A stretch of DNA of 24,963 nt from Candidatus Levyibacteriota bacterium. Lineage in GTDB: Bacteria > Patescibacteriota > Microgenomatia > Levybacterales > UBA12049. The stretch is taken from the NCBI GenBank assembly GCA_903872785.1, contig CAIQLZ010000022.1, positions 1-24,963 of the forward strand. Direction: 5' to 3'. The notes under the pieces are model-generated. The model saw nothing but the letters and a program-made list of their open reading frames with translations, did no database searches and was not told where the DNA came from. Within the stretch, counting starts at the first letter, position 1. Each line of letters opens with the position of its first letter. The translations under genes and the position numbers were made by a program. Shown here in pieces: positions 6,774 through 21,217 of the stretch.

Positions 6774-7670
6774 ATGGCAGATACAAAAGATTATTATCAG
6801 ATACTTGGAATTACAAAATCAGCGACCAGTGATGAAATAAAAAAAGCTTACCGAAAACTTGCTTTACAATATCATCCCGATAGAAATAAGGGGAAGGATG
6901 CTGAAGCAAAATTCAAAGAAGTAACCAAGGCTTACGAAGTTTTGTCTGATCCGCAAAAAAAACAAACTTATGATCAATTCGGTCATGCGGCTTTCGAGCA
7001 GGGTGCAGGACAGGGTCCATTTGGAGGCGCAGGTGGGCCATTTGGAGGTTTTGGGCAACAGGGAGGGCCTTTTTCCTACACATACGCTACTGGTGGGGAC
7101 GGAGGAGCTGGTTTTGATTTCGGAGGATTTACAGACCCATTTGAAATATTCGAACAGTTTTTTGGTAGTGCTAATCCTTTCGGTAGGCAAAGAAGACAAT
7201 CTTATTCTCTGACAATTGATTTTCTTGAAGCAGTTCACGGAACTGCAAAAAAAGTTACTATTGAGGGGAAATCGCAGACAATAAAAATTCCGAAGGGCGT
7301 TGATGAAGGCTCCAGAATCCGCTTTGGAGATTACGATGTAGTTATTTCGGTTAATCCGGATAAAAGATTTCAAAGAGAAGGGTTTGAGATTATCGGAATC
7401 AAAGAAATCTCTTTTGCACAAGCGGCATTGGGTGGAGAAGTTCAGATTGAAACAATTGACGGAAATTTGAAATTAAGGATTCCTTCCGGAACCCAGCCGG
7501 GAACTGCAATTAGGCTTAGGGGAAGAGGAGTACCTCATCTGCACGGGTCAGGCCGCGGCGATCATTATATCCGAATAAAAATTACAGTTCCAAAGCATTT
7601 AACAGGAAAACAAAAAGAACTGCTTCATGAGTTTGAGGGAGACTCAAATAAAAAATCCACCTGGTTCTGA
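6774..7670 (+). CDS. dnaJ: DnaJ-family co-chaperone, class B-like (J-domain, G/F-rich region, C-terminal domain; no zinc finger)
   Basis: KKAYRKLALQYHPD, G/F-rich linker, GTQPGTAIRLRGRGVP; no CxxCxGxG repeats. Confidence 0.92.
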   Translation: MADTKDYYQILGITKSATSDEIKKAYRKLALQYHPDRNKGKDAEAKFKEVTKAYEVLSDPQKKQTYDQFGHAAFEQGAGQGPFGGAGGPFGGFGQQGGPFSYTYATGGDGGAGFDFGGFTDPFEIFEQFFGSANPFGRQRRQSYSLTIDFLEAVHGTAKKVTIEGKSQTIKIPKGVDEGSRIRFGDYDVVISVNPDKRFQREGFEIIGIKEISFAQAALGGEVQIETIDGNLKLRIPSGTQPGTAIRLRGRGVPHLHGSGRGDHYIRIKITVPKHLTGKQKELLHEFEGDSNKKSTWF

Positions 7671-7676
7671 CGCTAC

Positions 7677-7889
7677 ATGAATTCAGACTACATTTTATAT
7701 ATTTTGGCGGCAATGATTTTCTATGATTTTTCATTGCATATTATTGAGTTTCTCTTCGGAATTGAAAACGCAAGAAAACTAAAATATTATTGGCCGGCAT
7801 TTCATAGCAGGAAAATTTACACAATTTTTTGGACAGCATATTGGGGAGTAGCTTTTATTTTAATATTGATTTATGTTCTGTTTCATTAA
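7677..7889 (+). CDS. Small two-helix membrane protein, unknown function (70 aa)
   Basis: Two hydrophobic, aromatic-rich segments; starts 6 nt after the dnaJ stop. Confidence 0.65.
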   Translation: MNSDYILYILAAMIFYDFSLHIIEFLFGIENARKLKYYWPAFHSRKIYTIFWTAYWGVAFILILIYVLFH

Positions 7890-7908
7890 GTAAATTAGCT
7901 TCAAATTG
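7889..7908 (+). repeat. Copy 1 of 21-bp intergenic direct repeat (AGTAAATTAGCTTCAAATTG)
   Basis: One substitution and one gap versus 12254-12274. Confidence 0.75.
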
Positions 7909-7955
7909 CAATATTTGGCAATATATGGCAATATTCGGCAATATCTGGTAAGATA
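7906..7955 (+). repeat. Five tandem 10-bp units (consensus TGGCAATATN) over the fic promoter; possible operator
   Basis: TTGCAATATT TGGCAATATA TGGCAATATT CGGCAATATC TGGTAAGATA; overlaps TGGCAA-17-TAAGAT (-10 at 7949-7954, 6 nt before ATG). Confidence 0.8.
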
Positions 7956-7960
7956 ATTTT

Positions 7961-8944
7961 ATGAAGATTCCGCCTGTGTACACCATTTCTGATCAAATGC
8001 TTTCTTATATTACGAAAATTGAAGCGGAACGTTTATATTTTTCCTCATTAAATCTCACAGAAGAGCTAAAAGGAAGTATCCAAAGGGCAAGTCTTCTAAA
8101 AAGTTCACTTTTTTCAGCCAGAATTGAAGGAAGTTCGCTTGAAATATCTGATTTTGAATTTAGCAATGAAACCGAAGAAGAAAAGAAAAAAGGAGTATTT
8201 AATATTATAAAGGCGATAAACTTTATCGATAAAGGTATCAAAATAAATGTTCTTTCAAAGGATATTGTTTTACAGCTCCATTCGTTAACTTTGAAAGATA
8301 TTGATCCGGATGCAGGGCGTTTTCGTTCGGAAATAAGTGCAATTTTTAATCAGGCAGGAGTAGCTGTTTATATGCCTCCTCCGCCAACGCAAATATCAAA
8401 ATTATTGGATAACCTCCTGGCCTATGTAAATTCAGAACAAAAGTTTCCTCTTGTTGTGGCTTTTGTTGCTCATCTGGTATTTGAGAAAATTCATCCATTT
8501 TTAGATGGAAACGGTCGGGTTGGCAGACTATTGATTCCAGTTATTTTGAAATCAAAGGGATGGGATTTTTCTTTGGCTGTGCCTTTTGAAGAATATCTGG
8601 ATGAACATAAAGATGAATATTATTTCTATTTAGATCAAGGTTTGGAAAACACCAATAATTATCTTGAATTCATGCTTGAAGCATTTTATAAGCAAATTGA
8701 GGAAATAAAAAATCAAATTAATGAAGAGAGGGCTAAAGAAGCGCATCCATTTCTCCCTCCCCGTCAGGAAGAGATACTGAATATTATTAAAGATCAGATT
8801 ATAGTTTCTTTTGACATGATCAGAAGGCGTTTTATCCAAGTTCCAGAAAGAACACTCAGATATGATTTAAAAAAACTTCTTGATCGGAAAATGATTGAAA
8901 AATCCGGCGAAACTAGGGGGAGATATTATAGGATAAGAAAATAA
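7961..8944 (+). CDS. Fic-domain protein with N-terminal inhibitory motif and C-terminal winged-helix HTH
   Basis: Canonical HPFLDGNGRVGR; SARIEG matches the (S/T)xxxE(G/N) inhibitory motif N-terminal to the active site (class II layout); C-terminal ERTLRYDLKKL...GRYY resembles a DeoR-like wHTH. Confidence 0.92.
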   Translation: MKIPPVYTISDQMLSYITKIEAERLYFSSLNLTEELKGSIQRASLLKSSLFSARIEGSSLEISDFEFSNETEEEKKKGVFNIIKAINFIDKGIKINVLSKDIVLQLHSLTLKDIDPDAGRFRSEISAIFNQAGVAVYMPPPPTQISKLLDNLLAYVNSEQKFPLVVAFVAHLVFEKIHPFLDGNGRVGRLLIPVILKSKGWDFSLAVPFEEYLDEHKDEYYFYLDQGLENTNNYLEFMLEAFYKQIEEIKNQINEERAKEAHPFLPPRQEEILNIIKDQIIVSFDMIRRRFIQVPERTLRYDLKKLLDRKMIEKSGETRGRYYRIRK

Positions 8945-8947
8945 AAA

Positions 8948-8959
8948 AACCACTTGGTT
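8948..8959 (-). terminator. Weak hairpin followed by a U-tract on the minus strand in the fic / HD-gene convergent gap
   Basis: Minus strand AACC-AAGT-GGTT then a run of T; only a 4-bp stem. Confidence 0.25.
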
Positions 8960-8965
8960 CTAGGT

Positions 8966-9649
8966 TTAAATATTATAAATAAGCTTTAATTGCTTGATGG
9001 CATTATTTATCTGTTCCGACAAATAGTGCGTTTCAGCGGGATATTTATTATATGCTTTTTTAAAAATGGGCATCAGAATTTCCTTTGTTTCACGGATCTT
9101 TTTCTCCGGAGTCTCCTGTCCTTCTTTGGGATAAAAAGTTCTTAGATTATCCAGTCTATCTGCCATTTTAACTAGTAATGCCTCTTCTGGGCCATCTTCT
9201 AAGCGTTTATACTTTATTGTTTTTGCCTGAGCTTTATTTTTTACAATTTTACCATCAACATAAGGTTCTGTTACGTAAAACACTATCTCTGCAGTTTCAG
9301 GATAGAAGATTTTTGAAATTCTATGAAAACTGTGAATATCAAACGCTCTAGCTGTCATTTCGGTCGGATTTCCGAAAAGAGACGTATCTTCCAATGTATC
9401 ATGCAGTAAAACTCCACAAATAATAGAAGGATTGGTAATTTTGCATTCATCAATCAATATTAAGCTTGCTCTTCTAGGATGCTCAAAATATCTTTCCCCA
9501 CTTATTCTTTTTTGTTCCCTATGGGCGGCTTTGGAAAGTTGATAAGCGGTTTCAATCTTATCTTTTTCACCTTCGGGCAAAGCTTTAATTCTAGCTTGAA
9601 AAGTATCCCAAGTTTCTTTTTGAACAGGATGTTCTTCTTCAGATGACAT
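8966..9649 (-). CDS. Stand-alone RelA/SpoT-type HD-domain hydrolase (small alarmone hydrolase / Mesh1-like)
   Basis: AYQLSKAAH, QKRISGERYFEHP, LLHDTLED, VKMADRLDN; no synthetase domain; TGGTAAAAT-6 nt-ATG with TTGCTC -35 at 17 bp. Confidence 0.88.
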   Translation of the reverse strand: MSSEEEHPVQKETWDTFQARIKALPEGEKDKIETAYQLSKAAHREQKRISGERYFEHPRRASLILIDECKITNPSIICGVLLHDTLEDTSLFGNPTEMTARAFDIHSFHRISKIFYPETAEIVFYVTEPYVDGKIVKNKAQAKTIKYKRLEDGPEEALLVKMADRLDNLRTFYPKEGQETPEKKIRETKEILMPIFKKAYNKYPAETHYLSEQINNAIKQLKLIYNI

Positions 9650-9706
9650 GACGGGATTTTACCAGAAAAAGGATTGAAGAGCAAACTATAAGCTATTAAG
9701 ATGATT

Positions 9707-9727
9707 ATTAATTTAACCTCAAAATTG
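9707..9727 (+). repeat. Copy 2 of 21-bp direct repeat (ATTAATTTAACCTCAAAATTG)
   Basis: 18/21 identical to 12254-12274 by eye alignment. Confidence 0.65.
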
Positions 9728-9835
9728 GTTTTTTGTGGAGTTTTAAATAAATTAATTTTAGTAAATTTGCAAATAAAACTATTAGCCTGGATGAAGTATC
9801 GGCAGAAGGTATGGTTAATTATGATTATGCCTAAA

Positions 9836-10309
9836 TTATTTTTTGTTGGAGGATTGGATTTTCTTAATTAGCTGGTCTACTTTGTTTTTAATTTTAGAAA
9901 ATGTTTTTTCTGAATTTTCTATTAATTCAATTTCAGCTTCTTTGTTTAATTTTTTCCCGTTAAGATTAACATTGTCAAAGTCAGGTATATCCCATATCTC
10001 GTACTTATTTCCCATGGGGTAATTTTTTGATTTGCATATATTATAATTATCTATGCTCATAAAAATTATATAATCATAGTTTTTCAAAGTTTGATATTCT
10101 GTATTTTTCCAAGAATAACTCATAAAGGATGTTAGTATGTTTCTTTGAAGAATTCTTTGGGCATACCAAGTGATCGGCCCTTTGAGTTGAGCAGAAGCCT
10201 TAGTTCCGCTCGAAGATACTGAAAGATTAGGTATTTGTTTTGATTTTAGGTATACTTCTGCAAGACGGCTTCTATAAATATTTCCGGTACAGACAAAATG
10301 TATTTTCAT
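9836..10309 (-). CDS. Low-molecular-weight protein phosphatase / ArsC-like family protein
   Basis: P-loop FVCTGNIYRSRLAE (CX5R), SSSGT, DYIIFM, WDIPD; the second P-loop Cys is replaced by Tyr. Confidence 0.88.
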   Translation of the reverse strand: MKIHFVCTGNIYRSRLAEVYLKSKQIPNLSVSSSGTKASAQLKGPITWYAQRILQRNILTSFMSYSWKNTEYQTLKNYDYIIFMSIDNYNICKSKNYPMGNKYEIWDIPDFDNVNLNGKKLNKEAEIELIENSEKTFSKIKNKVDQLIKKIQSSNKK

Positions 10310-10365
10310 GTTGTTAGGATTATAGCATTATGGAGTAAATGCGATTATAGTGTTATTTGTCATTG

Positions 10366-10386
10366 AGAAAATTAGTCTCAAAATCT
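10366..10386 (+). repeat. Copy 3 of 21-bp direct repeat (AGAAAATTAGTCTCAAAATCT), inside the dyad TTGAGA-AAATTAG-TCTCAA (10363-10381)
   Basis: 17/21 identical to 12254-12274; perfect 6-bp inverted arms around a 7-bp spacer. Confidence 0.7.
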
Positions 10387-10522
10387 CTCCTTTATCCAGC
10401 CCCGCAAAGATTTATATAGTTTAAGAATTGAAGCTAAGTTTGTGTGTAAAAAGTCCGAACATCATTCATTGCGCGGAGTCAAATAGGGCTATAACTCTAA
10501 ACTGGCCTAGACCGTGACGGGG

Positions 10523-10543
10523 AGCAAATTAGCCTCAGAAATT
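10523..10543 (+). repeat. Copy 4 of 21-bp direct repeat (AGCAAATTAGCCTCAGAAATT)
   Basis: GGAGCAAATTAGCCTCAGAAATT versus GGAGTAAATTAGCCTCAAAATT at 12252-12273. Confidence 0.75.
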
Positions 10544-10567
10544 ACAGTCGGAGTCCAAGTATTTGTA

Positions 10568-11360
10568 TTATTGACATTGGTTGTTGGAGTAAATACATCC
10601 AGCGTTATTACATTCGGATTTACCATTAATATTTGCGCATCCCCCGCAAGCAACTTTGGAGTTCACATATGTATCAGTTGAGTCAAACCATGATGCGCAA
10701 ACTCCTCCTCCCGCGCACTCAGGGTGCCATTTGCAATTGCTTGCCGCATCACAGCCACTTTTAGTTTTTACACTGTTGCACGTACATGACGGGTCAACGA
10801 AAGAATTCTCTTCACATCTACCGCAATTACTATCAATCCTGCAGCCACTACCCTGTTTATTGCAGGCATTTACTCCAATTATGTTTCCGCATCCCCCGCA
10901 AGCTACCTTAGTATTTGCTATCAACGATGCGCAAGCTCCTCCGCCTGCACATTCGGAACGCCACTCACAAGAAACTGCTCTATCACAACCACTTTTACTT
11001 TTAACACTGGCACATGTACAAGATGGGTCAGGAACAGTTGGATCCTCACATCTACCGCAATTACTGTCAATAAAACAACCGCTTCCCATCTTATTACAGG
11101 TATCTGTTCCAATGATGTTTTGACATCCGCCACAGGCTCCCTTAGAACTTTCTCCAACTACCGCACAAGCTCCTCCTCCGGCACATTCGGAACGCCATTC
11201 ACAGGAAGCTGCCGTATTACAGTCACCTTCACCTTTGATAGTATCGCATGAACATGCCGGATCATACGGGGCAGTTACGTCTTCACATTTACCGCAGTCG
11301 CTCCAATAACTGCAGCCATTTTTGATACATGACGTTTCTCCTATAAGAGATGTGCATTTT
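10568..11360 (-). repeat. Intragenic Cys-rich repeats (about 3.3 units; 234 and 252 bp periods)
   Basis: CGGC-encoding anchors at 10637-10648, 10889-10900 and 11123-11134. Confidence 0.85.
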
Positions 11361-12121
11361 ATTAAGCCGGCAAACGGATTGGTAAATATTTTTTGCCACC
11401 ATGGTTTGGTTATGGATTCAGTTATTCCACCGTTTCTATTTACGTTTAAGACAACCGTATTCGATATCGAGATTAATCCAAGTATTTTATTCTGTATTTC
11501 ACCTTTAACGGTAATATTTTTACCATCAGTGCCTGTAGTAATTGTTGGGTTAGTTAGGGTTATTCCCATATTGTTTACTATCTGTTTTATCTTGGTTGGG
11601 GGAAGCGGTGCGCTTGTAGGTTGCGGTGTCGGAGTCAGAGCGGTCGGATGTGGCCATTGATTAGGTTGCGGTGTTACCGTTGCAGTTGGGAAAGTTGGCC
11701 ATTGATTAGGTTGCGGTGTCGGAGTCAGAGCGGTCGGATGTGGCCATTGATTAGGTTGCGGTGTCGGAGTCAGAGTGGTCGGATGTGGCCATTGATTAGG
11801 TTGCGGTGTTACCGTTGCAGTTGGGAAAGTTGGCCATTGGTTGGGTTTCGAGGTAGGAGCCGGCGTTGCTTGGACAGTATATATTACTTGAGTTGGTATC
11901 TTAGGGTTAACGTTGAGTAGTGTTTGAAGGCTTGATAAAAGTGAACCTGAGGAGGTTTGAGTTCCAAGTACGAACCTGCCGCATTTTCCTAAAGAAACCC
12001 TGCCAATTATAAAGCCGACAAGAATAAAAAAAACAATCCCTAATGCATACGTCAATACACGGATAAATATTGATCTCTTCGCAGATTTAGGGACCGATGG
12101 CTGAACATTTTCAGCGTCCAT
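10568..12121 (-). CDS. Membrane-anchored surface protein: TM anchor, Pro/Thr repeat stalk, KPWW-ending globular segment, Cys-rich tandem repeats
   Basis: N-terminal hydrophobic helix (LTYALGIVFFILVGFIIG); five 15-aa repeats; 40 Cys in the C-terminal ~260 aa in 78-84 aa units. Confidence 0.9.
   Translation of the reverse strand: MDAENVQPSVPKSAKRSIFIRVLTYALGIVFFILVGFIIGRVSLGKCGRFVLGTQTSSGSLLSSLQTLLNVNPKIPTQVIYTVQATPAPTSKPNQWPTFPTATVTPQPNQWPHPTTLTPTPQPNQWPHPTALTPTPQPNQWPTFPTATVTPQPNQWPHPTALTPTPQPTSAPLPPTKIKQIVNNMGITLTNPTITTGTDGKNITVKGEIQNKILGLISISNTVVLNVNRNGGITESITKPWWQKIFTNPFAGLIKCTSLIGETSCIKNGCSYWSDCGKCEDVTAPYDPACSCDTIKGEGDCNTAASCEWRSECAGGGACAVVGESSKGACGGCQNIIGTDTCNKMGSGCFIDSNCGRCEDPTVPDPSCTCASVKSKSGCDRAVSCEWRSECAGGGACASLIANTKVACGGCGNIIGVNACNKQGSGCRIDSNCGRCEENSFVDPSCTCNSVKTKSGCDAASNCKWHPECAGGGVCASWFDSTDTYVNSKVACGGCANINGKSECNNAGCIYSNNQCQ
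11618..11842 (-). repeat. Five tandem 45-bp intragenic repeats of two variants (PQPNQWP-TFPTATVT / PQPNQWP-HPTALTPT)
   Basis: Plus-strand units start at 11618, 11663, 11708, 11753 and 11798; near-identical at the nucleotide level. Confidence 0.95.
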
Positions 12122-12206
12122 ATACCTATATTAAGTAAATCACAACAACAGTTTAATTGCAAAACATCATTTAATTCAGGCTGTTCCCAAACATAAAAGA
12201 CCGTTA

Positions 12207-12249
12207 AGAACTTTATTTTGTATAAATAAGTTCTAGCGTCGCTCGCTAG
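12207..12249. other. Two abutting hairpins immediately left of repeat copy 5
   Basis: AGAACTTTATTT-TGTAT-AAATAAGTTCT (one bulge, 12207-12234) and CTAGCG-TCGCT-CGCTAG (12233-12249). Confidence 0.6.
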
Positions 12250-12253
12250 GCGG

Positions 12254-12274
12254 AGTAAATTAGCCTCAAAATTG
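12254..12274 (+). repeat. Copy 5 of 21-bp direct repeat (AGTAAATTAGCCTCAAAATTG)
   Basis: Reference copy; right boundary of the accessory block. Confidence 0.75.
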
Positions 12275-12295
12275 ACTTTTGCATAAAACTTTAAT

Positions 12296-12324
12296 TTGTA
12301 ATTTATTCTTAAACTTCCTATACT
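12296..12324 (+). promoter_or_regulatory. sigma70 promoter, leaderless, for the Clp-like ATPase
   Basis: TTGTAA (12296-12301), 17 bp, TATACT (12319-12324), 6 nt, ATG. Confidence 0.7.
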
Positions 12325-12330
12325 GAATCT

Positions 12331-14796
12331 ATGCTGTTGCCAGTTCAGTTTTTGAAATTTTGGTTTATAGATTCCCCAAGGAATTTAATTGCTTTTTTCA
12401 ATTCTTTAAATAACGCTTTTTTGCAATTATGTTCCCTTCCTCTTTTGCTTAAAACCTATTTTAAGCCCTGGAAAAACGAATATCGGGAAGGACTGGTTGG
12501 ATTCTCAATCGGAATGGGAATATTCATAAAAACATTTGTTATTGCTGTCGATGTAGTTCTCTGTCTGCTTCTTTTAATTGCTGAGCTTTGTGCAGTTGTT
12601 GGTTTTATTTTTCTGCCGTTTATAACTGTTTTCTCAGTTTTTTATTCCCCTTTTTCCAGGGACTGTCTTTTTCCCGTTTCACTTATTTTTGTTCTTTTTA
12701 TTTTTCTATCTTTTAAGCCCAAAAAAAGCTTTTCTGAAATTGTTGCATCTGAAAAACAGGTTGTAAATATTGTTAAATTTTTACTCAAACAAAAAGAAAT
12801 AAATTTTCTTTTGAAAAAAGCCGATATAAAAAAGGAAGAAGTAAATTTGATCGAAGCGCAGAAAGATACGACTATTGATAGCCCTTTAGATTTTTTTGCA
12901 AGTTATTTGTTCTTAACGGAAGAACAAACAGGGATATTATTTAAAAAAAAGCTTAAAAAAGAAGATCTGTTGAATATCGTATATTGGTCAAAAACGAAAT
13001 TTAAGGATGAAGAAAAGCCGTTTAGAGCTAGTTTTTTCGGAGAGGGATTCGCGGAAGCTTGGACCTGCGGATGGACACTGGAAACCAAAAAATACATGGT
13101 TGACTTAACCCCCGAGATATTTAATGAAAAACCACTTCTTTTAGGCCGGCAAAATGAATATGGGCAATTATGGACTGCTCTGGCAGAAAAGAAAAGCGTA
13201 ATTTTGGTAGGAGAACCTGGAAGCGGCAAAAGCAACTTAATTAAGGCACTCTCTTTCGAGAGTTTTTCCAGCGATTTAAAAGATTTTCATCACCAAAGAA
13301 TTTTTAAATTATACGTAGATACGCTTTTAGCAGGGGCAGAAAACCAGGGAGAGATTGAAAAACGCCTTGATGGGATTATCGCGGAGATTGCACATTCCGG
13401 CAATGTAATTATCTATATTGCTGATTTTGAAAATATCTTGGGATCATCGTCGTTTAAGATTGATTTATCGGGAGTGCTGATTCCTTATCTTAAAAATAAA
13501 TCCATAAGGATAATAGGAACTGCGACAAAAGGTTCGTATAAAAAATTTATTGAAAATTCAGCAAGTGTTTCCGATGTTTTTGAAACTATAAAATTGGAAG
13601 AACCGGATCGGAACACATTGTTCGAAATGCTTTTGGATAAAGCATCTTCCATAGAAAAAAGGATGAAAGTAGAACTTTCCTACAGAGCTATTCTTTCGGC
13701 AATTAATTTGGCAAACAAATATCTTGTTGACAGAGTATTGCCGGGTGCAGGGGTCGCGCTTTTGGAAGATACGGCAAATGAGGTCAGGCTTTCGGGGAGA
13801 AAAAAAGTTTTGGAAAACGATGTTATTAAAAGAGTTGAAGAAAAAACAAATATAATCTTAGGTGTTCCAACGGCAGAAGAGAAAAAACTCTTACTGAGTC
13901 TTGAAGAAAAAATGCATGAAAGCCTTGTGGATCAGATAGAAGCAGTAGGAGGTATTGCCGAGGGTATGCGCAGAATCCGGTCCGGACTTAAATCCGAAGC
14001 AAAGCCCATTTCTTTTCTTTTTCTGGGCCCGACAGGGGTCGGAAAAACTCAAACTGCAAAAACTCTTTCCAATCTGTATTTCAATGGAGAAAAAAACATG
14101 ATCAGATTTGATATGAGCGAATATCTCTTCAGTGCGGGAGTCGATAGATTCATAGGTTGTGGTATGGGTTCGGAAAATGAAGGAATTGCGGGAAAAATCC
14201 ATGAGAATCCAAGTTCACTGATTTTGCTTGACGAATTTGAGAAAGCAGATCCTGCAATTCATAATCTCTTTTTACAAATTTTGGATGACGGTAGACTTAC
14301 GGATAAAAACGGCAAAACCGTTTCTTTTGCAAATGCGATTATTGTTGCAACCTCAAATGCGGGATCTGAATTTATACGGGAAGAAATAGAGAAGGGGTCG
14401 GTTATTGATAAAAATTTTAAAGATAAATTTTTGGGTCATCTTCTTTACAAAAATATTTTCAGGCCGGAACTTCTAAATAGATTTGATGACATTGTGATTT
14501 TTAAGCCCTTGGACATGATTGAAATAATTCAAATTACAAATTTATTGCTCAAGGATGTTTCAAAGGGGCTTTTGGAAAAAGATATTAGCGTAGTTTTTGA
14601 TGAAAAGGTTGTTTCGAAAGTAGCAAAAGAGGGGTTTGATGAGCAATTCGGCGCCAGGCCTCTTAGAAGATTTATTCAAAGTAAAATCGAAAACCTTTTA
14701 GCTCAGAAAATACTGAGAGAAGAAGTAAAAAGAGGAAACAAAGTTAATGTTACTGTAGATGCCTCAAATGAGATCCAAATAACTGTTGTTAGTTAA
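12331..14796 (+). CDS. ClpA/ClpB-like (Hsp100) double AAA+ ATPase with N-terminal membrane domain
   Basis: GEPGSGKS (D1), GPTGVGKT, RFDMSEY, LLDEFEKA, GRLTD, RPELLNRFD, GARPLRR (D2); hydrophobic N-terminal ~130 aa. No clpA/B/C symbol assigned because of the atypical architecture. Confidence 0.88.
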   Translation: MLLPVQFLKFWFIDSPRNLIAFFNSLNNAFLQLCSLPLLLKTYFKPWKNEYREGLVGFSIGMGIFIKTFVIAVDVVLCLLLLIAELCAVVGFIFLPFITVFSVFYSPFSRDCLFPVSLIFVLFIFLSFKPKKSFSEIVASEKQVVNIVKFLLKQKEINFLLKKADIKKEEVNLIEAQKDTTIDSPLDFFASYLFLTEEQTGILFKKKLKKEDLLNIVYWSKTKFKDEEKPFRASFFGEGFAEAWTCGWTLETKKYMVDLTPEIFNEKPLLLGRQNEYGQLWTALAEKKSVILVGEPGSGKSNLIKALSFESFSSDLKDFHHQRIFKLYVDTLLAGAENQGEIEKRLDGIIAEIAHSGNVIIYIADFENILGSSSFKIDLSGVLIPYLKNKSIRIIGTATKGSYKKFIENSASVSDVFETIKLEEPDRNTLFEMLLDKASSIEKRMKVELSYRAILSAINLANKYLVDRVLPGAGVALLEDTANEVRLSGRKKVLENDVIKRVEEKTNIILGVPTAEEKKLLLSLEEKMHESLVDQIEAVGGIAEGMRRIRSGLKSEAKPISFLFLGPTGVGKTQTAKTLSNLYFNGEKNMIRFDMSEYLFSAGVDRFIGCGMGSENEGIAGKIHENPSSLILLDEFEKADPAIHNLFLQILDDGRLTDKNGKTVSFANAIIVATSNAGSEFIREEIEKGSVIDKNFKDKFLGHLLYKNIFRPELLNRFDDIVIFKPLDMIEIIQITNLLLKDVSKGLLEKDISVVFDEKVVSKVAKEGFDEQFGARPLRRFIQSKIENLLAQKILREEVKRGNKVNVTVDASNEIQITVVS

Positions 14797-14846: not shown

Positions 14847-15944
14847 ATGCCGGCCGTACAAAGAAGCGAATTTTTATTAGCTTTAAATCAAGTCGCCAAT
14901 GAGCGAGGCGTTGATGTCGAAATTGTTCTAGATACGGTAAAAAACGCTATTTTAGCAGCTTACAAAAAAGATCATTCGGACATCGAACTTGAAGAATATT
15001 CTACAACTTTGGACAAAAACACAGGGGAGGCCACAATTTTTCATAAAGATAAAAACGTTACGCCTCCTGGGTTCGGGAGAATCGCAGCCCAGACCGCCAG
15101 GCAGGTAATTTTGCAAAAAATCAGAGAAAAGGAAAAAGAAGCAATAATCGCTGATTACAAATTAAGAGTCGGGACAATTGTAAATGGAATGATTTTACGG
15201 TTTGCAGGGCCAAATATTATTGTTGATGTTGGGAAAACAGAGGCATTAATGACAATTCCGGAACAAATTCCAAATGAAAAATATCATTTGAATCAAAGGT
15301 TGGCTGTTTATATTTCTGAAATTAGAGCGGGACTCAAAGGTGATGAAATTATTGTCTCAAGGTCCAGCAATGGACTTTTGGAAGGATTATTTAAAAGGGA
15401 AGTTCCTGAAGTCGCCAAGGGAAGTGTAATTATAAAAAATATTGCCAGAGAGGCAGGAGCCAGAAGCAAGGTTGCTGTTTTTTCTAATCAGCAAGGAATA
15501 GATCCAGTCGGAAGTTGTGTTGGGCAGCGGGGAGTCAGAGTCCAGGCCATTATTCAGGAGTTCGGTGGAGTTGAAAAAATCGACATAATTCAATGGCATG
15601 AAAATACCAAAGACTATATTACTCAAGCTTTGTCTCCGGCGAAACAAGTAAGAGTTGAATTAGACAAAAAGATTGAGAAGTCAGCTCATGTGTTTGTTCC
15701 GGCTGAAGAACTTTCCTTGGCAATCGGCCGGGATGGACAAAATGTTCGTCTAGCCTCAAAATTAACAGGTTATGCAATTGAAATAGAAGAAGAGATCAGC
15801 ATTAAAAAAAAATCCGAAGAACCAAAGGAAGAAACAGAAGTAAAAACAGAAAAAAAGGAAAAGAAAACTGTAGCAAAACTTAAGGAAGAAAAAATAAAAG
15901 AATCAAAAGAGAAAAAAACAGATGGAGAGAAAACAAAGGTTTAA
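14847..15944 (+). CDS. nusA: Transcription termination/antitermination factor NusA
   Basis: FGRIAAQTARQVILQKIRE, S1 domain, AREAGARSKVAV, DPVGSCVGQRG, LAIGRDGQNVRLASKLTG. Confidence 0.97.
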   Translation: MPAVQRSEFLLALNQVANERGVDVEIVLDTVKNAILAAYKKDHSDIELEEYSTTLDKNTGEATIFHKDKNVTPPGFGRIAAQTARQVILQKIREKEKEAIIADYKLRVGTIVNGMILRFAGPNIIVDVGKTEALMTIPEQIPNEKYHLNQRLAVYISEIRAGLKGDEIIVSRSSNGLLEGLFKREVPEVAKGSVIIKNIAREAGARSKVAVFSNQQGIDPVGSCVGQRGVRVQAIIQEFGGVEKIDIIQWHENTKDYITQALSPAKQVRVELDKKIEKSAHVFVPAEELSLAIGRDGQNVRLASKLTGYAIEIEEEISIKKKSEEPKEETEVKTEKKEKKTVAKLKEEKIKESKEKKTDGEKTKV

Positions 15945-18872: not shown

Positions 18873-21217
18873 GGATTCAAAAAATATCAGCCTCCCTGGA
18901 GATAGGTGGGAAAAATCTAACATTAGAAGTAGGGGAATTAGCCCGACAGGCAACATCTTCTGTTTTAGCCCGTCTTGGAGATACAATGGTTTTAGTAACC
19001 GTAGTCATGGGTAAAGAAAGAACAGATATTGATTATTTTCCCTTGACAGTGGAGTATGTAGAAAGATTATATGCCGGAGGCAGAATTAAAGGTTCAAGGT
19101 GGGTAAAGAGAGAAGGAAGACCAACAGATGATGCTATTCTTACAGGGCGTCTTATAGACCGCTCCGTCAGACCTCTTTTTCCAAAAGGATTCAAAAAAGA
19201 AGTTCAAATAATTGTAACTGTTTTATCAGTTGACGGAGAAAATTCTCCCGATGTTTTGTCTGTTGTTGCAGCTTCAGCTGCTCTAGCAATTTCCCCAATT
19301 CCATGGAGAGGTCCGGTTGGAGCAGTCCGCATGGGATACGTTCAGGATAAAGAAAGTGGTAAAGCTGATTTTATCGTTAATCCGGGAATGGCGCAGTCAG
19401 AACTTTCGGAACTGGACTTAATTGTCACCAGTCTAAAAGATAAAACTTTGATGCTTGAGGCAGGAGCACAGCAGGTGTCGGAAAGTGTCGCCTTGGAAGG
19501 GATTAAAAAAGCCCAAATTGAAAACGATAAAATTATTGATTTTATTGAAGATTTTGCTAAAAAAATAGAAGTAAAAAAAGAAGAAGTCAAAACAAACACA
19601 GAACTTCTGGAACTTGTCGCGCTTTTAGAAAAATCATACAAAACTGAAATTGTTGCAATGATCAAAGGTAGAATATCCAAGGAACTAAGCGGAGATCCGG
19701 GGGTATTCATAGACAAAATTATTGAAGAGCAAAAAGCAAAAGATGAGGATTTTTCTGCGGATAAAAAAATAATTGCAATAGCAATCGAACACATCATGTT
19801 CAAGAATCTTAGAGAAAATACTTTGATAAAAGGGATAAGGCCGGATGGAAGAAAAATTGACGAAATAAGACCGATTTCCTGCAAGGTTTCAGTGCTTCCA
19901 AGAACTCACGGTTCAGCATTGTTTAACCGGGGAGATACCCAAGCTTTAACAATCGCAACTTTGGGTTCGCCCCGCATGGAACAATTAATAGAATCTGCAG
20001 AAGGAGAAGAATCAAAAAGGTATATCCATCATTACAATATGCCTCCATATTCTGTGGGAGAGGCCGGAAAATTTGGATTTACCTCACGCCGGGAAATAGG
20101 GCATGGAGCATTGGGCGAGCGGGCAATAATGGCAGTTATTCCAAGTCAGACAGAATTTCCTTATACAATTCGGGTTGTTTCGGAAATTCTTTCTTCCAAT
20201 GGCTCTACATCAATGGCAGCAACTTGCGGGTCAACTTTGGCTTTGATGGACGCGGGAGTACCACTCAAAAAACCGGTTGCAGGAATTGCCATGGGAATGG
20301 TTTCCAAAGATGATAAATATGTGATTTTGACAGACATTTTGGGACTTGAAGATTTTTCAGGAGACATGGATTTCAAAGTTGCAGGAACAGATTCAGGTAT
20401 AACAGCGATTCAATTAGATGTAAAAATTTTAGGATTAACAATAGAGCAGATTAAAGAGGTTTTTGAGAAAGCAAAAGTTGCCCGCCTTTTTATTCTGGAA
20501 AAAATGATTGCAGTTGTCGGGGCGGGAAAGAAAGACGTTTCAGAATATGCGCCAAAAATAGAACAAGTCCAAATTCCTGTGGATAAAATAGGGGAAGTTA
20601 TCGGGCCGGGGGGCCGCGTTATTAAAGGTATAATTGCAACAACAGGTGCAACTGTTGACGTTGAAGATTCTGGAATTGTAACCATTTCGGGAACAGATAA
20701 GGATGCTGTCGCAAAAGCTGTGGATTGGGTTAAAGGTATAGTCCGTGAAGTAAAAGTTGGAGAAATTTTTTCTGAAGCCGAAGTTAAGAGAATACTTCCT
20801 TTTGGAGCATTTGTTGAATTTTTACCGGGCAAAGAAGGAATGGTTCATGTTTCTAAAATGAAAGAAGGGTTTGTCCGCAATCCTTTAGATGTAGTTTCGA
20901 TCGGACAAAAAGTTAAAGTTAAAGTTGTTGAGATAGACGATCAGGGAAGAACAAATTTATCAATGTTATTCGGAGAAGTTAGCGGAAATATTCCGCCAAA
21001 AAAAGAAGAGCCTCATGATGACGATCAGAGCCAAATTCCTGTAGCACCAGTTGCTGCAGTTCCTTCCGAGCATCCGTTATCAAGGCAATTCAAGAGAGAA
21101 CGTTTTTCCCAAGGTCCAAACAGGACTCAGGGTAACTGGAGAAGCAGGAGAACTCCTGGTGGATCAGCTTCGGGATCAAGACCGGCAGATACGCGTTTCC
21201 GCAAATCCCACTATTAA
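18869..21217 (+). CDS. pnp: Polyribonucleotide nucleotidyltransferase (PNPase)
   Basis: DYFPLTVEY, RLIDRSVRPLF, RREIGHG, SNGSTSMA, DMDFKVAG, KH (VIGPGG) and S1 domains. Confidence 0.98.
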   Translation: MRIQKISASLEIGGKNLTLEVGELARQATSSVLARLGDTMVLVTVVMGKERTDIDYFPLTVEYVERLYAGGRIKGSRWVKREGRPTDDAILTGRLIDRSVRPLFPKGFKKEVQIIVTVLSVDGENSPDVLSVVAASAALAISPIPWRGPVGAVRMGYVQDKESGKADFIVNPGMAQSELSELDLIVTSLKDKTLMLEAGAQQVSESVALEGIKKAQIENDKIIDFIEDFAKKIEVKKEEVKTNTELLELVALLEKSYKTEIVAMIKGRISKELSGDPGVFIDKIIEEQKAKDEDFSADKKIIAIAIEHIMFKNLRENTLIKGIRPDGRKIDEIRPISCKVSVLPRTHGSALFNRGDTQALTIATLGSPRMEQLIESAEGEESKRYIHHYNMPPYSVGEAGKFGFTSRREIGHGALGERAIMAVIPSQTEFPYTIRVVSEILSSNGSTSMAATCGSTLALMDAGVPLKKPVAGIAMGMVSKDDKYVILTDILGLEDFSGDMDFKVAGTDSGITAIQLDVKILGLTIEQIKEVFEKAKVARLFILEKMIAVVGAGKKDVSEYAPKIEQVQIPVDKIGEVIGPGGRVIKGIIATTGATVDVEDSGIVTISGTDKDAVAKAVDWVKGIVREVKVGEIFSEAEVKRILPFGAFVEFLPGKEGMVHVSKMKEGFVRNPLDVVSIGQKVKVKVVEIDDQGRTNLSMLFGEVSGNIPPKKEEPHDDDQSQIPVAPVAAVPSEHPLSRQFKRERFSQGPNRTQGNWRSRRTPGGSASGSRPADTRFRKSHY

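Follow-up and report, generated by a model that had tools for sequence, protein, structure and literature searches.

The window, that is the whole stretch of 24,963 nucleotides analysed here, carries genes called as DnaJ and a ClpB-like AAA+ protein, and between them lie genes for a Fic protein, an HD-domain hydrolase, a low-molecular-weight phosphotyrosine phosphatase and a Cys-rich protein. This block contains five copies of a 21-bp sequence with the consensus AGCAAATTAGCCTCAAAATTG. The copies start at 7889, 9707, 10366, 10523 and 12254, all on the + strand, as had been predicted and as both direct reading and script extraction confirm. Their spacings are indeed 1818, 659, 157 and 1731 bp, and copies are present in all intergenic gaps of the block except the fic/HD junction. 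The original prediction had 17 to 19 of 21 positions matching copy 5; the values found for copies 1 to 4 are 17, 18, 17 and 17. The core AAATTAG is intact in four of the five copies and reads AATTTAA in copy 2. The perfect TTGAGA/TCTCAA arms described for copy 3 are real; this 6-bp dyad is perfect in that copy only, and most other copies have a partial GAG...CTC.

The nhmmer E values given below were obtained with a 53-position profile of a longer element to which we assign the 21-mer. A 70-aa hydrophobic ORF (7677..7889, + strand) lies between dnaJ and copy 1 in the variable spacer, and its DNA is not conserved in relatives. Copy 1 (7873..7909, +; 21-mer 7889-7909; E 0.011) forms the left end of the stack, and its shortened, tRNA-like left part overlaps the 3' end of this ORF. 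It is followed by four GCAATAT repeats with 10-bp spacing (7908..7949, +), which precede the -10 box of fic, are conserved upstream of fic in five of five same-genus relatives and probably form an operator of the Fic-wHTH protein. The cargo of unit 1 consists of fic itself (7961..8944, +), encoding a Fic domain and a C-terminal winged-helix part, and the convergent HD-domain hydrolase gene (8966..9649, -). Copy 2 (9686..9727, +; 21-mer 9707-9727), with two mismatches in the 18-mer core and an E of 2.4, is the most degenerate of the five, and the phosphatase gene (9836..10309, -) is the cargo of unit 2. Copy 3 (10347..10386, +; 21-mer 10366-10386; E 0.005), whose inverted arms surround AAATTAG, opens the 157-bp unit. 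This unit has no gene, as was claimed, yet it encloses a sixth, degenerate element copy (10451..10497, +) that had been overlooked. The sixth copy has a good tRNA-like left part ending GCGCGGAG and then a degenerate right part, and the profile matches it weakly (10456-10486, E 4.7); it is supported by three better-conserved relatives on contig C15 of the same genome, on the strand of tRNA-Asn. In copy 4 (10499..10544, +; 21-mer 10523-10543; E 2.6e-6) the left part ends ACGGGGAGC, resembling the 3' end of the genome's own tRNA-Asn. The cargo of unit 4 is the Cys-rich repeat protein (10568..12121, -), which has an N-terminal membrane anchor, no Pfam family and a called length that varies among assemblies. 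Copy 5 (12225..12275, +; E 1.4e-9), in which a tRNA-like left part is followed by AGTAAATTAGCCTCAAAATTG, is the best copy and the right end of the stack. The clpB promoter (12296..12324, +; TTGTAA, a 17-bp spacer and TATACT, 6 bases before the ATG) is common to G003 and is backbone rather than stack. The units carry their own promoters, in line with the original prediction.

The repeats could be thought of as an AT-rich intergenic word, arising by chance or copied together with promoters by tandem duplication at the locus. The genome has 36% G+C, and coding DNA does contain weak partial matches; the one in nusA (15751-15764, E 5), which had been flagged before, is a chance match. However, four matches to the 18-mer core with at most three mismatches are found in the window against 0.13 expected, and none of 100 dinucleotide shuffles reached four. 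The flanking units share no other similarity, and the element is present in 40 other genomes of the family and on 69 metagenome contigs. Thus, we regard duplication or chance as barely credible. In a position-weight-matrix scan, which had been proposed as a check, the five copies rank at the top of the 842-kb genome, with three further strong copies at C15:9040(-), C15:13285(-) and C67:1554(-). A genome-wide repeat family is ruled out by k-mer counts, which show no high-copy repeat family.

The 21-mer had been taken for a free-standing site unlike integron attC or dif. It is better described as the right part of an element of about 50 bp that includes a decayed 3' half of tRNA-Asn, a classic mark of insertion into a tRNA gene. 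When the flanks of the motif are aligned across genera, the left half (consensus TAGGTTCTAACATCGTCTATCCCTCGGAGC) appears as a diverged copy of the last ~30 nt of tRNA-Asn, in direct orientation and alignable from the variable loop to GGAGC. In some Levybacteria, the right half, AAATTAGCCTCAAAA(TTGAC), stands immediately 3' of an intact tRNA-Asn. At L118 the motif directly follows the intact tRNA-Asn 3' end, and in G067 the intact tRNA-Asn ends within the motif, with a 25-bp perfect repeat 567 bp downstream. The left halves are poor in copies 1-3 of the window; in G102 and L118 they keep the T-loop and acceptor end almost intact. Since scoring single left halves against all tRNAs does not discriminate, the link to tRNA-Asn is drawn from position and alignment. 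In 12 genomes (G000, G054, G057, G065, G067, G079, G084, G126, G134, G137, G152 and G155), elements lie on the strand of tRNA-Asn and no more than 20 kb downstream of it, and the window's own genome, with contig C15, is among them; by our estimate such placement is expected by chance for roughly 1% of elements. The length of about 50 bp fits the attachment site of a large serine recombinase (LSR), which spans about 40-50 bp. Such sites also have an imperfect dyad around a central dinucleotide; in our element the dyad is perfect in copy 3 only and partial elsewhere. On balance, we favor the reading that each 21-mer is the centre and right half of an attachment-site relic of this length.

The left half varies mainly at antisense third-codon positions (0.25 versus 0.10 and 0.12; permutation p 0.013) and is open in the antisense frame in 32 of 34 copies. 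This is as expected if it derives from the tail of an LSR gene. The right half, i.e., the 21-mer, has no significant codon periodicity (p 0.31). Because no intact LSR gene reads into the element among 102 left-half copies, where the longest open antisense frame is 81 codons, the case for this origin is indirect. An un-recombined LSR gene running through the element was also sought among 71 motif copies on the 69 metagenome contigs; there was none, and the longest antisense frame has 155 codons. No viral contig gave an exact match to the motif. An RNA element was rejected, as Rfam returned nothing for positions 7000-13000 at E up to 1 and RNAalifold found no consensus pairs among 22 aligned copies; the conservation is in sequence.

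The element is restricted to Levybacteria, a group of uncultured bacteria of tiny size, and is patchy there, occurring in 41 of 151 family genomes and in none of the three same-genus genomes searched. Exact 20-mer matches among 185,579 species all fall in Levybacteria-type records. It forms arrays on a single strand, with 10 copies in G058 (all -), 8 in G067 and 10 within 8.3 kb in G133 (all +). The window's genome has two arrays, with 7 copies on C15 and 6 in the window, the latter all on +. Array genes stand in either orientation, and the polarity of the element follows the array. The cargo consists of unrelated accessory genes, including those for a YafQ/ParE toxin, NUDIX, MscL, an MFS transporter, DUF488 and Fic, and some cassettes are duplicated (G133). 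These one-strand arrays in several other genera support the earlier idea that the repeats bound cassette-like units as relics of recombination sites. An intact tRNA-Asn borders the sister array on C15, and the same holds in 11 relatives. ARAGORN finds no tRNA in the window, which also has no recombinase gene; thus, this stack is not at the canonical site.

The original prediction pointed to a tyrosine recombinase as the agent, and this part of it is not supported. An integron-like capture by such an enzyme, Xer-type or an unseen integrase, would treat the 21-bp core as inverted arms around a 7-bp spacer. The perfect arms of copy 3, the partial dyad of most copies and the 25-bp perfect direct repeat of G067, an identity block like those that tyrosine integrases leave, all suit this reading. 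So does the fact that some array genomes are without an LSR match: G084, G137 and G152 have arrays and no resolvase-domain match at a cut-off of E 1e-8, and at least two Xer-like genes are present in all eight genomes checked, including G084 and G152. However, the eight genomes have two tyrosine recombinase genes each (three in G126), of two kinds that are common to all eight (about 150 and 105 bits), and none is near an array. In G000, G058 and G067 the two Phage_integrase-domain genes of each are on contigs other than the arrays, and in five more genomes, with two or three such genes, none lies within 100 kb of the elements found. Further, the alignment is without a conserved hairpin, unlike attC; there is no 11-6-11 dif-like dyad, and the copies are all direct, against the alternation in pdif modules. 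The tRNA-Asn junction is occupied by LSR genes and not by tyrosine integrases. Nine relatives have an LSR ORF of 495-583 aa that is convergent with tRNA-Asn and stops 13-40 nt within it. The LSR-bearing inserts of G155 (15.5 kb) and G065 (11.6 kb) terminate in the element. In the window's own genome, C15:19805-20104 abuts tRNA-Asn and encodes a 100-codon remnant, residues 401-500 of an LSR, 98% identical to one in G126. We conclude that a tyrosine recombinase is unlikely and that the units were most likely inserted by large serine recombinases.

The element could alternatively be a cis-regulatory one, a promoter-upstream or transcription-factor site of a regulon with clpB, fic and others. For fic, clpB, the DUF333 gene on C15 and a second fic, the motif stands 52-57 bp upstream of the ATG, and it often ends in a -35-like TTGAC box or has TGATATAAT after it. 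Each of the genome's three fic genes, the one in the window and two others, follows an element. Against this, anywhere between 0 and more than 17 nt separate the motif from the -10 box, the orientation of the element tracks the array and not the gene, and clpB of same-genus species is without the motif. A regulatory role also leaves unexplained the tRNA-Asn-like left half, the anchoring at tRNA-Asn and the position of copy 4, which lies at a gene's 3' end. We consider it highly improbable. A heat-shock operator of the HspR/HAIR or CIRCE type was suggested by the neighbouring chaperone genes and by the TTGAG-N9-CTCAA of copy 3. It was rejected, since the dyad is missing from the other copies and the element also occurs next to unrelated genes.

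The comparison of the dnaJ-to-Clp locus, also proposed earlier, shows that the spacer differs in every same-genus species. The spacers of G001 (316 bp), G005 (about 1.2 kb) and G003 (about 1.6 kb) each have a different content, and in these three genomes the motif is absent upstream of clpB. The outer copies had been described as the borders of the block. This is true on the right, where the match to sequences upstream of clpB in other genomes picks up again at 12272, at the end of copy 5; on the left, the border is formed by the stop codon of dnaJ, 219 bp upstream of copy 1. The same-genus orthologues of fic (75-79% protein identity) lie at other loci, and the junction between motif and fic seen at copy 1 recurs upstream of fic in G005, again at a different locus. 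Homologues of the HD hydrolase occur in G023, G017 and G037, with no element near those of G023 and G017. There is no sign of present mobility. Every other assembly with an identical DnaJ whose contig extends into the block has an unchanged gene order over the part that it covers, and site-bounded variation among near-identical strains was rejected on these grounds. A search for copy-to-copy junctions gave no joints among the short Logan contigs, a result that proves nothing either way.

We suggest that the copies are relics of the attachment sites of cassettes that were inserted one after another, in this case at a secondary site within the genus-variable dnaJ-clpB spacer, and we give this reading a probability of roughly 0.6. 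Mobile elements carrying an LSR gene would insert at the 3' end of tRNA-Asn, after which the LSR gene would read into the tRNA and the far end of the insert would carry a relic. Repeated insertion, including that of small units without a recombinase, would stack gene units one way, each bounded by a relic. One such stack lies behind the genome's own tRNA-Asn on C15. The window would hold a second stack of four or five units, namely fic with the HD hydrolase, the phosphatase, one or two empty remnants and the Cys-rich protein, and this could have arisen by insertion at a look-alike secondary site or as a moved piece of the tRNA-Asn array. We infer that LSRs made these particular junctions and that the small units were inserted one by one. 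LSR integration normally gives hybrid sites that cannot be used again. Hence, regular stacks could form only if donor and target sites were alike in their right halves, which we assume. A bolder version is possible, though doubtful: that Levybacteria, and CPR bacteria more widely, have an active integron-like capture in which LSRs act in trans to insert and excise single-gene cassettes with a minimal site of ~50 bp, derived from the 3' end of an LSR gene and the tRNA-Asn trailer, with insertion at tRNA-Asn as well as at secondary sites, for example in the dnaJ-clpB spacer.

The genomes of CPR bacteria are tiny, few mobile elements are recognised in them, and little is understood of the ways in which these bacteria acquire and shuffle accessory genes. 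In the literature on integrons, genomic islands, serine recombinases and tRNA in Patescibacteria, CPR and Levybacteria, we found no description of this element. A lineage-wide, tRNA-Asn-anchored and LSR-associated stack of small, self-expressed units with a conserved 50-bp site would be a distinct route of gene capture, integron-like in layout and different in enzyme and site. The window adds that such a stack can lie off the tRNA, within a conserved chaperone operon, and that the 21-mer, which directly follows intact tRNA-Asn in some relatives, would be the right half of the target site. LSR sites that are both short and specific are also of interest in practice, as tools for genome engineering.

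Among known systems, integrons and integrase-less attC clusters (CALINs) have a similar layout, in which sites of one orientation mark off units that mostly hold a single gene and are unrelated in function; duplicated cassettes, as in G133, are a further likeness. They differ in that no IntI gene lies next to the array here, the site is conserved in sequence rather than folded like attC, the cassettes have their own promoters and mixed orientation, and the anchor is a tRNA gene and not attI. The dif/pdif sites are 28 bp long, with 11-bp arms and a 6-bp spacer, and alternate in pdif, whereas our element has no such dyad and its copies are all direct. Genomic islands at tRNA genes are marked by a regenerated tRNA and a displaced 3' fragment, the principle of the Islander database, and those described there have tyrosine integrases (PMC4383910). 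In such islands and their tandem accretion, as in our arrays, the far end of each insert bears the tRNA 3' part again as a direct repeat, and accessory genes are stacked behind one tRNA gene, here tRNA-Asn. However, LSR genes occupy the junction here, a unit is often just one gene and lacks a recombinase, the displaced fragment has a cross-genus consensus of its own, unlike the real tRNA, and the stack in the window is wholly without a tRNA. In archaea, gene capture by SSV-type integrases, whose gene is split on integration, was reportedly described by She et al. in 2001. There too the recombinase gene spans the attachment site, and integration alters the 3' end of that gene, with remnants of gene ends staying behind next to tRNA fragments; in our case only the last codons would be exchanged, the recombinase is of the serine and not the tyrosine type, and the hosts are bacteria. 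SCC at the 3' end of rlmH/orfX in staphylococci and the ssrA islands of Dehalococcoides are tandem arrays driven by serine recombinases that include units without a recombinase. They are alike in the serine recombinase, the 3' end of a conserved gene as target, the direct-repeat borders and the recombinase-less units, and what sets the arrays described here apart is the tRNA-Asn target, the CPR lineage, the LSR ORF that runs into its target and the much smaller units.

We suggest, with a probability of roughly 60%, that the block between dnaJ and clpB consists of stacked, inserted units with relics of tRNA-Asn-type attachment sites as their borders, at a secondary location. Five direct copies of a 21-bp repeat had been predicted in the block. 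Sequence reading and script extraction place them all on the + strand, starting at 7889, 9707, 10366, 10523 and 12254, and the predicted spacings of 1818, 659, 157 and 1731 bp are reproduced. The predicted similarity to copy 5 was 17-19 of 21 positions; we measured 17-18. Two checks that accompanied the original prediction, a shuffled background and a whole-genome scan, were both run. With up to three mismatches allowed, the window has four matches to the 18-mer core; the shuffled expectation is 0.13. In the whole genome (842 kb, 36% G+C, 107 contigs), where the window corresponds to contig C22, a weight matrix made from the same five copies ranks these copies first, followed by only three other strong matches (C15:9040-, C15:13285- and C67:1554-) and a few weak ones; there is no abundant repeat family in this genome. 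By Pfam, the window encodes Fic, HD, LMW phosphatase, DnaJ and a ClpB-like AAA+ protein, and the Cys-rich ORF has no Pfam family.

The 21-mer forms the right-hand portion of a longer element. Its pattern recurs in further genera of this family, at 18 places versus 2 for a reversed control, and a conserved stretch of about 30 nt precedes it there (consensus TAGGTTCTAACATCGTCTATCCCTCGGAGC). This left stretch aligns to tRNA-Asn from the variable loop through the 3' end, and a linker, usually AAAT and ranging from 4 to 23 nt, separates the two modules. In one family genome, G067, the motif contains the end of an intact tRNA-Asn(GTT), and the junction is repeated perfectly over 25 bp, 567 bp downstream. 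In genome G102 and metagenome locus L118, the motif is preceded by a T-loop and acceptor end that are nearly or fully intact. In the window, the left halves are clear in copies 5 and 4, the latter terminating in ACGGGGAGC, which resembles the genome's own tRNA-Asn (C15 c[20099-20173]); they are shortened in copies 1 and 3 and poor in copy 2. A sixth copy, whose left half is good but whose right half has decayed, lies at 10451-10497 within the 157-bp "empty" unit and has three relatives on contig C15. The element alignment gave no consensus secondary structure, and an Rfam search gave no match. Separately, three tRNA-Asn matches (G091:C1:160452-160708, G062:C30:798-1097 and G102:C4:159854-160124) are each interrupted at the anticodon loop by about 180-230 bp, which may represent either an intron or an insertion.

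The left half can also be read as protein. Translated from the complementary strand in the frame of the large serine recombinases (LSRs) that run into tRNA-Asn, it gives LRGIDDVRTY. Of 34 copies, 32 are open in this frame, versus 5 and 12 in the other two, and variation falls mainly at its third-codon positions (0.25 vs 0.10 and 0.12, permutation p 0.013). The left half is 3 nt shorter than the true tRNA segment.

The original prediction had likened these sites to those of tyrosine recombinases, which the inventory of eight genomes does not bear out. Exactly two Phage_integrase-domain genes are present in seven of the eight and three in G126; two kinds, of a constant type, are common to all eight, and none lies near an array. 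In our genome, G058 and G067, the LSR genes extend in antisense into genes for tRNA-Leu, tRNA-Ser, tRNA-Pro and tRNA-Glu. Intact LSRs of 515-551 aa that end within opposite-strand tRNA genes were seen on our contigs C3 (L058) and C97 (L078), in G058 (L057) and in G067 (L060). Since such genes end inside the tRNA, their final codons are tRNA antisense (e.g. ...GFEPT...). Crossing LSR places with tRNA-Asn places, followed by ORF reading, gave nine relatives (G155, G065, G050, G018, G017, G090, G009, G105 and G159) in which an LSR of 495-583 aa converges on tRNA-Asn and ends 13-40 nt within it, typically reading ...LRG/LRD-stop. The inserts that carry the LSR in G155 (15.5 kb) and G065 (11.6 kb) are each terminated by an element copy. 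Our own genome retains a 100-codon C-terminal LSR remnant (C15:19805-20104, L035; residues 401-500) that has lost the catalytic part and directly adjoins tRNA-Asn. Its protein is 98% identical to an intact LSR within the array of G126, a different genus, and identity at this level points to recent transfer of the LSR between genera.

The left half would derive from the native tail of an LSR gene on the unintegrated element, and the right half would be the native chromosomal trailer of tRNA-Asn. This double origin fits the observations. Since we found no intact LSR reading into an element, the LSR-tail step is one that we infer.

A sequence-only model detected the element in 41 of the 151 family genomes; the three genomes of the same genus all lacked a match. 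Exact 20-mers occur on only seven contigs among genomes of 185,579 species, six of them titled Levybacteria or Patescibacteria, and the 19-mer is on 69 metagenome contigs. The seventh contig (CAYWVK010000002.1; G152:C2, L071) carries the element under the title "uncultured Gammaproteobacteria"; its genome is placed in the Levybacteria family, and the title is probably wrong. Single-strand arrays are found on G058:C36 (10 copies), G067:C6 (8 copies, starting at tRNA-Asn), G133:C3 (10 copies in 8.3 kb), G126:C2 and our own C15 (7 copies). Crossing element with tRNA-Asn places gave 12 genomes, ours among them, in which elements lie on the tRNA-Asn strand and no more than 20 kb downstream of the gene. 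Many other cases are unlinkable, since the tRNA or the array coincides with a contig break. In G133, the element begins 0-25 nt past the preceding stop codon and keeps its orientation where cassette genes are inverted, and one two-gene cassette is present twice. The cargo is varied and includes DUF2268 protease, YafQ/ParE toxin, NUDIX, MscL, DUF1295, DUF2177, pyrimidine-dimer glycosylase, MFS transporter, DUF488 and Fic, with DUF333, SLT, PEMT-like, MliC and CDGSH proteins on our C15. Downstream of the element there is typically an extended -10 box (TGATATAAT) at varying distance, or TTGAC. Thus the units have their own promoters, as had been proposed. Another locus of our genome, on C81 (L003:68-1988), holds in order a class A beta-lactamase-family gene, an element copy, three tandem CTTGACAATTAG units and a second fic, MarR-like at its C-terminus; this locus probably represents a piece of a further array.

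Genomes of the same genus have dnaJ next to clpB but vary in the spacer: 316 bp with one small ORF in G001, about 1.2 kb with membrane-protein ORFs in G005, and in G003 about 1.6 kb, holding a 172-aa ORF plus an RHH/RelE-like pair. The element is absent from all three spacers. DNA similarity to relatives ends at the dnaJ stop (7670) and returns at 12272, the final three bases of copy 5 and the start of the conserved clpB promoter region. The G003 antitoxin/toxin pair (G003:C5, L021) lies between two repeats of about 30 bp (AGCTTYCGACCCCTGG..GTTGACGCA) distinct from the element; it may represent a second type of unit with site borders at this hot spot. The ancestral clpB upstream region (12272-12290; compared with L118, L124 and others) starts TTGACTTTTGCA and over 8-9 nt resembles TTGACTTCTTTTTG, the start of what follows the motif in L118, where tRNA-Asn is intact. 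Such a resemblance at the stack's right junction might have favoured insertion or recombination at that point.

In every assembly with identical DnaJ that reaches into the block (two extend to clpB and two more to the phosphatase), gene order is unchanged as far as the contigs reach, and the sole difference is the called length of the Cys-rich gene. This repeat gene (10568-12121) is called as 517, 472, 405 (contig end) or 333 aa across same-population assemblies, which reflects variable repeat number or, alternatively, collapse of its 45-90-bp repeats (11617-11839) during assembly. No copy-to-copy joints were seen in short Logan contigs of four runs; a second study gave one Logan contig with a near-identical element in a different context.

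Within the genus, fic is conserved at other loci. Just upstream of the window fic, four GCAATAT repeats at 10-bp spacing (7908-7949) look like an operator that the winged-helix domain of Fic itself would bind; they are kept upstream of fic in five of five same-genus relatives despite the differing loci. The motif-to-operator junction of the window also precedes fic in G005 and is absent in four other species.

We found no published description of such arrays. The window stack is like an integron in layout, but differs in its site and likely in its enzyme. SCC and ssrA islands are serine-recombinase stacks and are among the nearest known systems. The same holds for tRNA-targeted islands with displaced 3' fragments (PMC4383910).
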